Translations under genes and position numbers: made by a program
Origin: Scenedesmus sp. PABB004
Taxonomy: Eukaryota
Reading direction: 5' to 3'
DNA: 64,000 nt
Assembly (NCBI GenBank): GCA_014905635.1
Contig: JABVCE010000026.1
Coordinates: forward strand, 372,001 to 436,000
Shown here: positions 3,785 to 63,980 of the stretch, piece by piece
Numbering within the stretch: position 1 is the stretch's first letter
How the letters are laid out: every line of letters starts with the position of its first letter
Notes under the pieces: generated by a model
Databases searched by the model: none
Told to the model about the DNA's origin: nothing
What the model saw: only the letters and a program-made list of their open reading frames with translations

Positions 3785-5771
3785 ATGCTGCTGCGCGCCC
3801 TCCCCGGCGCGCTGCGGGCTGCGGCGGCCCTGCCGCGTGGCCTGGGCGCCGCCGCGTGCGTGCACACCAGCGGCGAGGCGCAGCAGCCCGTCGCGCAGCC
3901 AGCTGCGGCCGGGGCGAAACCAGCCCTGTTCAAGGTGCGGCCCGGGCGCTGGGGGCCGGCTCAGCGCCTGCCCGGACTGTCGGCACGCGCCCGGGAGCAG
4001 CGGCGCGGCCAGCGGCGGCGCGGGGGGCCGGGGGGTCGCGCATGCTGCCGCAGCAGCAGCGTGTGGCGCGGCCGCGCTGCCGCAGCCTGCGCGCGCGCGG
4101 CGGGCCGGGCAGATCACCGCCCCGGGATCCGATCAGCGGCGCAGGGCCGCCGCGGCGCGCCGGGCGGCCCGGCGCGGCGGTTGCGCGCGGGTGGCGGCGA
4201 GCGTCCGCCCGCGCCGCGCCCGCGCCCGCGCGCCGCGCTGCAGGAGTTTCAGATCTACCGCTGGAACCCGGACTCGCCCGAGAAGCCGCACTATGTCACG
4301 TACAAGGTCGACATCAACAGGCATGCAGCCGGCGGCGGGCGGCGGGCGGCGCGCGCGAGCGCTGCCGCCGAGCATCGCGCGTCGCCCCCTCCCAACTCAC
4401 ACACCCCGCGCGCCGCCGCCGCCGCAGCTGCGGGCCGATGATGCTCGACGTGCTGCTGAAGATCAAGGACGAGCAGGACCAGACGCTCTCGCTGCGCCGC
4501 TCGTGCAGGCGCGGCGCCCCGCGCGCCGCGCGGCGCGGCGCTCCACGCCCGCACGCCCGCCGCGCCGCCGCCGGCCGCGCGCGCCGCTCCACACCCACCC
4601 AACCACGCGCCGCCGCCGCCGCCGCCGCCGCCGCAGGGAGGGCATCTGCGGGTCGTGCGCGATGAACATCGACGGCCAGAACAACCTCGCGTGCCTCTCC
4701 AAGGTAAACCGCGACCCGGCCAAGGCGAGCCGCGTCGCGCCGCTGCCGCACATGTTTGTGGTGAAGGACCTCGTCGTCGACATGAGCAACTTTTACGCCC
4801 AGTACAAGAGCATCAAGCCCTTCCTGCAGAAGAAGGGCGGGTGCGGCGGCGCGGGCGGCGGCGCGGGCGGGGCGCGGGCCAGGGCGGGCGGGGCCAGGGC
4901 AGGGCGGGCTCGGGGCGGGGGTGCGGGTGCGGGTGCGGTTGGGGGGGGGGGGGGGGGGGGGGGGGGGGGCGGGGTCACAGAGGGCGGAGAGAGGCCGGCT
5001 GGTGGAGGGCGGAGAGACGCCGGCCGGCACCGCCCACGCCCCGCGCGCCACCGCCGCCGCCCACGCCCGCGCGGCGGCGCCCCGCCCGTGCAGGACGTCC
5101 GGCGAGGCCAAGGAGCTGTACCAGAGCAAGGAGAGCCGCGCGAAGCTGGACGGGCTGTACGAGTGCATCCTGTGCGCGTGCTGCAGCACGTCGTGCCCGA
5201 GCTACTGGTGGAACCAGGACAAGTACCTCGGCCCCGCGGTGCTGCTGCAGGCCTACCGGTGCGTGCCGCGGCGGCGGCAGCGCGGCGGGAGCAGCGCCCG
5301 GCCGAGCGCTCAGCCGGCCGCGCGCCGGCACGCGCCTGCACGCGCCGCCGCCGCCGCGCGTCACGCTTGGGGCCGGCCGCCTGCCCGCCCGCGCGGCGCG
5401 CCGCGCCGCGGCGCAGGTGGGTGATCGACAGCCGCGACGACTTCACCGCCGAGCGGCTCGCGCACCTCGACGACGCGTACAAGCTCTACCGCTGCAAGGC
5501 GCGGAGCACGGGGCGCGGGGCGCGGGGCACGCGGCGCGGGCCCACAGGGCCTGTGCGTAGAGAGCGCCGCGCGGCCGACGCTCCCCGCCCCGGGCCGGTC
5601 GCTGACCGAGGCGCCCCGCCGCCTGCCGCCGCCGCGCCGCCCGCCCGCCCGCCCGCCCGGTGGCGCCCACAGACGATCATGAACTGCTCGCAGACCTGCC
5701 CCAAGGGCCTCAACCCCGGCAAGGCGATCGCGAAGCTCAAGCAGAGCCTGCACAAGGGCAGCCCCGTGTGA
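3785..5771 (+). CDS. SDH2: Succinate dehydrogenase iron-sulfur subunit, mitochondrial (6 introns, 3 GC-AG)
   Basis: Motifs [58 protein letters not shown] and [21 protein letters not shown]. Confidence 0.97.
4941..4969. repeat. Poly-G run in SDH2 intron 4
   Basis: 29 consecutive G. Confidence 0.9.
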
Positions 5772-5899
5772 GCCGCGTGTGGTGTGCCGCGGGGCGTGCG
5801 GCCGGCGGCGGCGGCAGCTTGGCAACCTGGGCCGCGTGTGCGGGGCGCGCGGGGGGCGTGTACTCTAGGGGGGGCGACTCGACTCGGCGCGTGGCGGTG

Positions 5900-5904
5900 T
5901 TACA
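5900..5904 (-). terminator. TGTAA polyadenylation signal of the C2-domain gene
   Basis: TTACA on the + strand about 45 nt past the stop codon. UGUAA is the established chlorophyte signal. Confidence 0.7.
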
Positions 5905-62868: not shown

Positions 62869-62910
62869 GCAGCGCGCGGGAGGGGCGTTAAAGCGCTGCA
62901 ACGTCGCAGC

Positions 62911-63980
62911 TCAGCCCGGCGGCGGCGCCGCCGCCGCGGCGGGGGCGGGCGGCGCCTGCTTCCGCGCGGCCGCGGCCTTGAACTCCGAGCCGCACGTCGG
63001 GCAGGCCGGGAGCTTCATGTTAGCCTTACAGAAGATGGAGAGGCAGACGGAGCAGATGTAGCCGGTGTCTATGACGGTCTTGTGGCAGAAGCAGGTCGCC
63101 CGAAAGTCGACGCCGCGCTCGCCCGCGCCCGTCGCGAGCGCGGCGCGCGTCGCCGTGTCGGCGCTGAACCCGGCCAGCAGGTACGCGAGCAGGCCGTCGG
63201 GCGCGGAGGGGCGCAGGTAGAGCCCGCCCGTGAGGTGCGCGGCCTGCTGCAGGAACGCCGAGTCGGCGGGCCCCAGCACGCACGCGTCGACCGCCACGCC
63301 GCCGGCCTGGGCGGCAAAGATGGCGTTCATGACTGGGATGTACTGCAGCGGCGTGTCGGCGGCGCGCACGAGCGCGAGCAGCCGCGGCTTGGCGCGGCGC
63401 CGCCCCGTCGCGCCGTAGCGGTGCGCGAGGCGCGCCGCGTAGCACAGCGCGCGCGACAGCCCCGCCGCGAGCGCAACCTCGGGCGGGCCCGCGCCCGGCG
63501 GCTGCTGCGCCGGCTCGCCCTGGCCGGGGCCTGCGGGCGCGGGGCGGCGGCGGCGCGCTGGGCGCGGGCCCGGCGGCGGCGGCGGCGGCCCGCTGCCAGC
63601 GTGCAGCCCGCGCCGCGCCGCACCCGCCGCCGCGCAGCGCAGCAGCGCCGCCACGCGCGACACGAGCAGCGCCGCGACGCCGCCGCTGCCGGGCGTGGCC
63701 GCGGCGGGCGTGTAAACAAACGGCGCCGCGGCGGGCTGCAGCGCGATGACCGCCTGGTGGTTGTGCTCGCTCAGCAGCTGGTGGGCCTTGAGGAACAGCG
63801 CCACCTGTTGCAGCGGCGGCGCGCCCCGGCGTCAGGGCGGCGGCCGCGCGCGCGTGGGCGTCGGCGGCGGCGCGGGGCGGCGCGCCTGCTGCAGCAGCAC
63901 GTCCGGTGCCACGCCCACGCCGGCGTCCGGGCGCAGCAGCGTGGTGTCCAGCAGCAGCACCAGCAGCTCGCCCTCCGCGT
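62911..63980 (-). CDS. TFB4: TFIIH subunit Tfb4/p34 (5' end outside the window; 1 complete GC-AG intron)
   Basis: Motifs LAAGLSRALCY, QYIPVMNAIFAAQ, FLQQAAHLTGGLY and VDFRATCFCHK..GYICSVCLSIFC..CPTC. Confidence 0.95.

Follow-up and report, generated by a model that had tools for sequence, protein, structure and literature searches.

The stretch analysed here, referred to below as the window, comprises 64,000 nucleotides (nt) of contig JABVCE010000026.1 (positions 372,001 to 436,000, forward strand; assembly GCA_014905635.1) from the green alga Scenedesmus sp. PABB004. It has a G+C content of 79.3% throughout and contains genes for SDH2, OMA1, PP1, RRP41, an FkbM-like methyltransferase, PIGA, RPL19, UBC9, an RSP10-like MORN protein, chloroplast EF-G, and TFB4, in which 22 introns were found to begin with GC instead of GT and to end with AG. 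Comparison with homologous proteins confirmed that these GC donors, as far as can be judged from sequence, are real and unusually frequent. An EF-G exon of the window is 92-98% identical to proteins of other Sphaeropleales (Scenedesmus, Tetradesmus, Chromochloris, and Monoraphidium). The genome of strain PABB004 has been described as comprising 39.8 Mb with 78.5% G+C and 7,092 genes, and the available text on the strain in this source does not mention splice, intron, or GC-AG (PMC12571836).

For all 22 sites, which had been named in a sequence-only reading of the window, the coordinate marks the G of a GC dinucleotide directly preceded by an exonic AG. The donor pentamer is GCGCG at 19 sites, GCACG at two (36920 and 13393), and GCATG at one (4321); position +5 is a G in 22/22 sites, an A at +4 occurs in 0/22, and the paired acceptors in the ab initio gene model end in AG in 22/22 cases. 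This readout confirmed the initial description of 22 GC donors following an exonic AG, all with G at +5, none with A at +4, and 21 of them reading GCRCG. Regarding membership in the U2-type GC-AG class, start with GC and end with AG were found in 22/22 introns, and the colinear reading frame was exact in 17/22.

The heptamer AGGCGCG is present 92 times in the window when both strands are counted, and each site therefore needed independent proof. Junctions were determined with a refiner that starts from neighbouring ungapped tblastn matches, tests all frame-keeping donor and acceptor positions while ignoring their dinucleotides, and scores each resulting peptide against the homolog. Ungapped matches were used because gapped ones ran through the stop-poor introns. 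Exact colinearity with homologs after intron removal was obtained for 17 of the 22 sites: 11 by this dinucleotide-blind spliced alignment, four by abutting residues in PDB chains, and two by abutting Pfam coordinates. At the 11 spliced-alignment sites, GC..AG was the sole solution of the GT, GC, or AT type at the top score; the references were three proteins for EF-G, including the transcriptome-derived P0005, four for SDH2, and four for OMA1. At two further sites, both in the FkbM-like gene, GC-AG outscores any GT choice, though the junction is not exact. For the remaining three (33510, 46170, and 63885), no homolog spanning the junction was found, and these sites are called from coding potential only.

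In SDH2, which is encoded on the plus strand, GC starts were found in three of six introns. The first of these (4321-4427, donor cag/GCATGC, the slash marking the exon-intron border) is, with 4/4 references, the sole GT/GC..AG solution that reaches the top score, the best GT-AG solution scoring 46-53 lower, and the junction reads VDIN-S-CGPMM in the database protein P0124. The second (4509-4636) also reached the top score with 4/4 references, with the best GT solution 26 lower; in addition, the flanking matches to the Pfam family Fer2_3 abut, with position 52 upstream, position 53 in the split codon, and position 54 downstream, and the junction is used in P0124. The third (5499-5672) has the top score with 4/4 references and a best GT solution 28 lower, and P0124 reads LYRCK/TIMNC at this junction.

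In OMA1 on the minus strand, four of seven introns start with GC. The intron at 13253-13393 (donor 13393, GCACG) is the sole canonical-type solution of the spliced alignments with P0243 and P0244, and no GT-AG alternative was found. For the intron at 12778-12898 (donor 12898), the top score was reached with 4/4 references (P0243, P0244, P0247, and P0246), the best GT solutions being 40-51 lower. The intron at 12578-12721 (donor 12721) splits HE/TGH of the HExxH motif and has the top score with P0243, P0244, and P0246, while it lies 4 below the top with P0247; here, the best GT solutions are 36-42 lower. The fourth intron (11928-12101, donor 12101) has the top score in the spliced alignments with P0243, P0244, and P0247, with no GT-AG alternative found. 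In total, all four sites are obtained with P0243 and with P0244, a homolog from Tetradesmus, and two of the four each with P0247 and P0246.

The plus-strand gene for chloroplast EF-G contains four GC-AG introns, all of which reached the top score in spliced alignments with 3/3 references. The intron at 55862-56043 has a best GT solution 46 lower, and the flanking matches to Pfam GTP_EFTU abut at positions 84 (85) and 86. For the intron at 57798-57976, no GT-AG alternative was found, and for the one at 58574-58719 the best GT solution is 64 lower; at the latter site, the EFG_III match ends at position 68 of 75, leaving seven residues before position 1 of EFG_IV in the next exon. The intron at 59838-59978 has a best GT solution 21 lower, and the EFG_C matches abut at positions 45 (46) and (47) 48. 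The complete spliced EF-G model is 93.2% identical to P0005 over 692 residues and has no stop. A possible additional GC-AG intron in the transit-peptide region of EF-G (54933-55005, plus strand) had the top score with P0001 only; this region is poorly conserved, and the ab initio model picked 54882 instead.

Abutting residues in PDB chains fixed four further junctions, all on the plus strand. The exons flanking the PP1 intron at 25670-25820 match residues 212-246 and then 247-291 of 7n6g_4D, end to end. Those flanking the RPL19 intron at 36920-37245 (donor GCACG) match 80-126 and 127-182 of 4v3p_LT, and no in-frame GT alternative was found between 45 nt upstream of this donor and 30 nt before the acceptor. 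The exons flanking the UBC9 intron at 44885-45099 match 100-118 and 119-148 of 4m1n_A. The RRP41 intron at 28222-28335 has a length that is a multiple of three, and the read-through query shows a 39-residue insert relative to the archaeal Rrp41 chain 2wnr_B, precisely at the position of the intron; the query aligns at 2-33/163-194 and 73-113/196-236, which gives a gapless register once the intron is removed. The sequence-only reading had claimed that no GT alternative fits at the protein motifs RAHQ/VVE, DFTLE/VER, YMK/VKGN, and AHE/TGH; this was borne out by the EF-G and OMA1 alignments and by the PDB abutment in PP1 and RPL19.

Two junctions were fixed by abutting Pfam positions. At the other RRP41 intron (27238-27379, plus strand), RNase_PH position 27 is the last upstream residue and residue 2 of the next exon lies at position 29, which places its residue 1 at position 28; the downstream RNase_PH match is weak (E = 0.037). 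At the PIGA intron 34846-34990 (minus strand, donor 34990), the match to positions 1-17 of the Pfam family PIGA ends on the last upstream residue, and residues 2-60 of the next exon lie at positions 19-77, hence residue 1 at position 18.

Support for the two plus-strand introns of the FkbM-like methyltransferase gene is moderate, since the available homologs are divergent. The junction at 29359-29490 is the best GC-AG solution with four of seven references and lies 16-74 above the best GT-AG solution there; it is 9-18 below the unconstrained top score because the flanks vary. With P0279, the junction at 30335-30476 is the sole canonical solution to reach the top score; it is also the best GC-AG solution with P0250, P0258, and P0281, while P0289 and P0265 prefer another GC site. 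Taken together, the best GC-AG solution exceeds every GT-AG solution in 7/7 references, the named junction is chosen in 4/7 for each of the two sites, and the unconstrained top score was reached only once (30335 with P0279).

The three introns called by the ab initio model are regarded as putative. For the second PIGA intron (33379-33510, minus strand, donor 33510), the upstream exon matches GT4 profiles through its last residue, and no match of the downstream exon was obtained with a PDB read-through query or with NCBIfam and relaxed Pfam scans; in-frame GT alternatives would remove 3-11 residues and have poor scores. At the intron of the RSP10-like MORN gene (46170-46266, plus strand), the upstream exon matches residues 99-136 of the Chlamydomonas RSP10 chain 7jr9_E through its last residue; the 20-residue downstream exon had no match in PDB, NCBIfam, or relaxed Pfam searches, and a scan that began 45 nt ahead of the donor and stopped 30 nt short of the acceptor revealed no in-frame GT alternative. 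At the TFB4 intron (63805-63885, minus strand, donor 63885), the downstream exon has a weak match to Tfb4 (profile positions 33-65, E = 0.13), and the upstream exon had no match in NCBIfam and relaxed Pfam scans.

Several of these junctions are already part of public gene models. P0243 is the NCBI entry 'oma1 [Scenedesmus sp. PABB004]', which is 100% identical to the OMA1 exon of the window, and it uses all four OMA1 GC donors. P0124 shows 100% identity to window exons, being a database protein of the window's own DNA, and all three SDH2 GC donors are used in its SDH2 part. GC-AG introns are already present in the GenBank gene models of this genome. P0124 itself (1238 residues; window 1-5770, plus strand) merges at least three genes into one model, namely an N-terminal gene without known identity, a chlorophyll a/b-binding protein (Pfam; exons 2329-3470), and SDH2; this fusion looks like a gene-merging error in stop-poor DNA.

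The frequency of GC donors was determined with a Viterbi gene finder that combines a three-periodic coding model with learned signal matrices. A first run with low penalties produced 590 introns on one strand and 634 on the other and was discarded. Unconstrained self-training was rejected as well, since it inflated GC donors to 140 of 316 introns, and the prior for position +2 was therefore fixed by hand at T 0.82 and C 0.18, near the rate of the sequence-only reading. With this setting, the finder recovered 16/16 homology-defined EF-G introns exactly and 22/22 of the named GC sites together with acceptors. It placed 144 introns on the locally dominant strand, and 114 remained after weak exons and introns longer than 450 nt had been dropped. 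This filtered set consists of 88 GT and 26 GC introns, the latter being 21 of the 22 named sites (5499 was lost at a strand-segment border) and five additional ab initio calls.

These five putative GC donors at 18791 (minus), 47159 (minus), 51894 (plus), 61616 (plus), and 62959 (minus) lie in genes without homologs, and four of the five lack the exonic AG. They are more likely to be model errors; if they were real, the rule that GC donors occur only after AG would be broken. Accordingly, the GC-AG rate is 22 of about 114-144 introns, i.e., 15-19%, and would rise to as much as 23% if the additional calls were real. The original estimate of about 125 introns with about 18% GC donors was thus a fair one, given an ab initio range of 114-144 introns and about 15-23%. 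The proposal that roughly a third of AG-ending exons use a GC donor also held, with 22 of 62 such exons counted (35%), and GC donors follow 4/52 exons not ending in AG, all four being unconfirmed ab initio calls.

The introns of the window share a strongly shifted composition of 46% C, 41.5% G, 6.5% A, and 6% T (87.5% G+C) and are short and uniform, with a median length of 131.5 nt. GCAG acceptors were found in 90/114 introns, and the last 60 nt are C-rich with words of the CGCCGC type. GC-shifted intron signals are present throughout the window (e.g., 55250-55485 and 57003-57193). Towards their 3' end, the introns run into a C-rich tract that ends in GCAG, and there is hardly any branch-point box: CTGAC occurs within 70 nt of the acceptor in 13/114 introns (9/88 GT and 4/26 GC), which indicates neither a strong box nor a difference between the classes. 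GC-rich simple tandem repeats are dense across the window (e.g., 13289-13350, 36965-37145, 44962-45039, and 50528-50620), and Tandem Repeats Finder (TRF) returned 172 rows at a score of at least 60, many of them within introns. A 7-nt CGCGGGT array lies inside the OMA1 intron 13253-13393.

Comparison of the two donor classes showed that both follow one consensus. Across all introns the donor reads (C)AG/GTGCG(C), and GC donors represent the same motif with C at +2. Among GT donors, 62/88 read GTGCG, with G at +3 in 85/88, C at +4 in 65/88, and G at +5 in 83/88, and GCGCG was found in 20/26 modelled GC donors. The classes differ clearly only at position -2, where A is present in 21/21 GC donors vs. 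43/88 GT donors (Fisher p = 3e-6); a slight difference was found at +4, where C is present in 20/21 vs. 65/88 (p = 0.04). The GC donors thus have a stronger consensus than GT introns at -2 and +4, whereas G at +5, G at -1, the GCAG acceptor, and intron length do not differ between the classes. Of nine positions that can pair with canonical U1 small nuclear RNA (snRNA), 6.05 are matched on average in GT donors and 5.52 in GC donors. The excess of A at -2 is the usual compensation of GC-AG introns. The sequence-only reading had taken the strict GCRCG pattern as a code pointing to altered recognition of the 5' splice site. This conclusion was not supported, as GCRCG is the window-wide donor consensus with C for T, so that all introns, not only those with GC donors, match canonical U1 poorly at +4 and +6.

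Motifs identical to the GC donors also occur within coding sequence. Modelled sense exons contain AG/GCRCG 18 times, in 17 cases in phase 0 as xAG-GCG-CGx, corresponding to (Q, K, or E)-Ala-Arg codons. The decoys at 36800 and 37348 (plus) lie in RPL19 exons that align without gaps to solved ribosome chains, and the one at 12143 (minus) lies in an OMA1 exon and is unspliced in the model. Since identical AG/GCGCG heptamers in exons are left unspliced, the heptamer is not sufficient for recognition, which argues against a spliceosome re-tuned for GC. AG/GTGCG was found 0 times inside modelled sense exons, compared to six times on the antisense strand of exons.

Several explanations other than ordinary GC-AG splicing were considered. 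U1 or U6 snRNA, U1C, or Prp8 could have co-evolved with the extreme G+C content, so that GC, and also C at +4, would be a proper donor. All donors of the window do match canonical U1 poorly at +4 and +6, GC donors at about 20% greatly exceed the mean of about 1.2% GC-AG introns over 121 plant and algal genomes (PMC6310983), and Irimia and Roy considered the same idea worth exploring for the donors of Ostreococcus (PMC2483917). This explanation is nevertheless unlikely. The GC donors need the extra A at -2, which marks them as a weaker class, and 18 perfect AG/GCRCG heptamers remain unspliced in modelled exons. Furthermore, GT donors are ahead of GC donors by about 4:1 despite an intronic C:T ratio of about 8:1; T at +2 is therefore still favoured over the C-rich intronic background, and GC is a weaker variant even after AG. 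The canonical references for such a change are the U1 5' end ACUUACCU and the U6 box ACAGAGA; an Rfam scan of the 64-kb window gave no hit, and no snRNA gene was found in it. A broader version, in which either the spliceosome (U1/U6 snRNA, U1C, or Prp8) has changed to accept C at +2 and +4, or an undescribed intronic signal separates true AG/GCGCG donors from the exonic decoys, is given a comparably small chance.

The remaining alternatives are far less probable. Chance AGGCGCG heptamers might have been picked in DNA of 79% G+C while the true donors were nearby GTs; the abundance of this heptamer, the tendency of the unconstrained ab initio model to over-call GC, and the five sites without exact homology support are in line with such a mis-reconstruction. 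It is largely refuted at the 17 junctions that are fixed to the residue by homologs, any GT-AG solution scores 21-64 lower or is nonexistent at the 11 scored sites, and at the remaining sites, GT alternatives that keep the frame either do not exist or are poor, making this account very improbable. Equally improbable are systematic T-to-C errors of assembly or polishing that would have turned a true T at +2 into C. Across the spliced models of EF-G, SDH2, and OMA1, amino acids that require T in their codons (W, F, Y, C, and M) are conserved at 140/155 positions (90.3%) vs. 910/1026 (88.7%) for all others. Errors affecting about 20% of Ts would have broken many of these residues; the spliced models also have no stops. 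Introner families are known in other algae, and the short and uniform introns of the window would suit recently inserted mobile introns with a GC donor of their own. When the 114 introns were compared all against all by blastn, only 27 short low-complexity matches were obtained vs. two in shuffled controls, the matches listed being 75-96% identical over 22-96 nt without a GC-donor-specific cluster, and GC-rich simple repeats abound in the window. An introner-like family was rejected as the introns share no sequence over most of their length, and this origin is extremely unlikely. A U12-type assignment was rejected as well: U12-type donors carry an ATCC-type motif just after the first two bases, and the donors here read GCGCG, GCACG, or GCATG. 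In agreement with this, the available part of a survey of 263 species reports no minor introns or minor snRNAs in Chlorophyta (PMC11347168).

The 22 introns are thus probably ordinary U2-type GC-AG introns that have become unusually frequent, at about 18-23% of the introns of the window, in the nuclear genome of a chlorophycean alga with about 79% G+C, without any change of the machinery being required. GC donors would be frequent because GC-biased substitution, by mutation or biased gene conversion, pushes T at +2 to C. The resulting C would be tolerated only where the exonic A at -2 and G at -1 provide pairs that offset the lost +2 pair with U1 snRNA; accordingly, 35% of AG-ending exons would have drifted to GC, with no verified case at other exons. 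The remaining information is probably supplied by the short introns (median of about 130 nt), their C-rich 3' part, and the GCAG acceptor through pairing of splice sites across the intron.

Some observations weigh against ordinary GC-AG introns as a complete explanation. Five of the 22 sites are without exact homology proof, and the intron total, the set of GT donors, and the assignment of exons and decoys all come from the same self-trained finder. The absence of exonic AG/GTGCG is partly circular because the finder tends to splice there. The analysis covers one 64-kb window, which the rest of the genome may not resemble. The sole sequencing runs found were three metagenomes (0.05-0.06 of sampled words), which, searched with positions 44001-64000, yielded no usable splice joints: the reads gave only pieces of 78-229 nt, 90-95% alike, from EF-G exons of other organisms. 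P0005 matched 80 loci in metagenome contigs at 55-71% identity, seemingly uninterrupted bacterial EF-G genes with no intron positions to compare. Moreover, the GC-AG rate does not simply track G+C content, as Emiliania huxleyi has 56% GC-AG introns at 65% G+C and PABB004 about 20% at 78.5%. GC pressure by itself thus does not fully explain the rate. An adapted U1 or U6 retains a small probability.

Among known systems, ordinary GC-AG introns of plants and animals resemble those of PABB004 in being U2-type, in having an AG acceptor, and in offsetting the weak +2 position elsewhere in the donor, here by the exonic AG. Ordinary GC-AG introns have donors of the GCAAGT type; in the window, the offset is found at -2 and -1 only, the intronic part reads GCGCG, and the rate is 15-20 times higher. 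The suspicion that elevated GC-AG rates might already have been reported for algae proved right for E. huxleyi (PMC4028052) and pelagophytes (bioRxiv 10.1101/2024.10.30.620910). In E. huxleyi, 56% of 241 curated junctions are GC-AG, a ratio of about 60/40; nine GC junctions were verified by reverse transcription PCR (RT-PCR), GC sites were missed by standard gene predictors, and the authors blame the genome's 65% G+C content (Feldmesser et al. 2014, PMC4028052). The nuclear genomes of E. huxleyi and PABB004 are both GC-rich, with a large share of GC donors and an AG acceptor. In contrast to this haptophyte with its GC majority, PABB004 is a green alga with about 20% GC donors and 78.5% G+C, and its sites are known from sequence alone, whereas those of E. 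huxleyi include RT-PCR-verified junctions. Pelagophytes have 14-17% GC-AG introns (Aureococcus 14-17%, Pelagomonas about 14%), also attributed to high G+C content (bioRxiv 10.1101/2024.10.30.620910). This rate, predicted from annotation, is very similar to that of the window, but pelagophytes are stramenopiles with 0.1-0.9 introns per gene, while the window has about two introns per kb.

Within the green algae, the donor consensus GTGCGTG of Ostreococcus lucimarinus (Irimia and Roy 2008, PMC2483917) has the same atypical core of G at +3, C at +4, and G at +5. Unlike PABB004 with its intron-rich genes and CTGAC in only 13/114 introns, Ostreococcus has GT donors, is intron-poor, and has a strong ACTGAC branch box. 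In the survey of plant and algal genomes, Chlorella sorokiniana has the green-algal maximum with 7090 of 124,435 introns (5.7%) and Micromonas pusilla has 496 of 8831, both counts including GC-AG and AT-AC introns (PMC6310983 supplementary file 8). For the related Monoraphidium neglectum, the same file lists 19 GC-AG introns among 67,746, a near-zero count that may be an artefact of GT-only gene prediction rather than biology. A literature search that covered publications on the strain only partly found no GC-AG rate for PABB004 or any alga of the Sphaeropleales. Frequent GC-AG splicing is thus a trait known from GC-rich algae, to which PABB004 adds another case.

For gene annotation, a predictor restricted to GT would misplace about one fifth of the introns here and therefore damage most multi-intron genes. 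A rate of about 20% would be the highest in green algae among the published values compared, which reach at most 5.7%, and it extends a trait of a haptophyte and pelagophytes to Viridiplantae. The rule that GC is used only after AG, in about 35% of such exons, gauges how much GC pressure the 5' splice site can take, and the exonic decoys pose the question of what else defines introns in DNA with so little A and T (6% each). If a changed spliceosome or a new intronic signal proved true, this alga would offer a natural system in which splice-site recognition has been rebuilt as A and T nearly vanished from introns.

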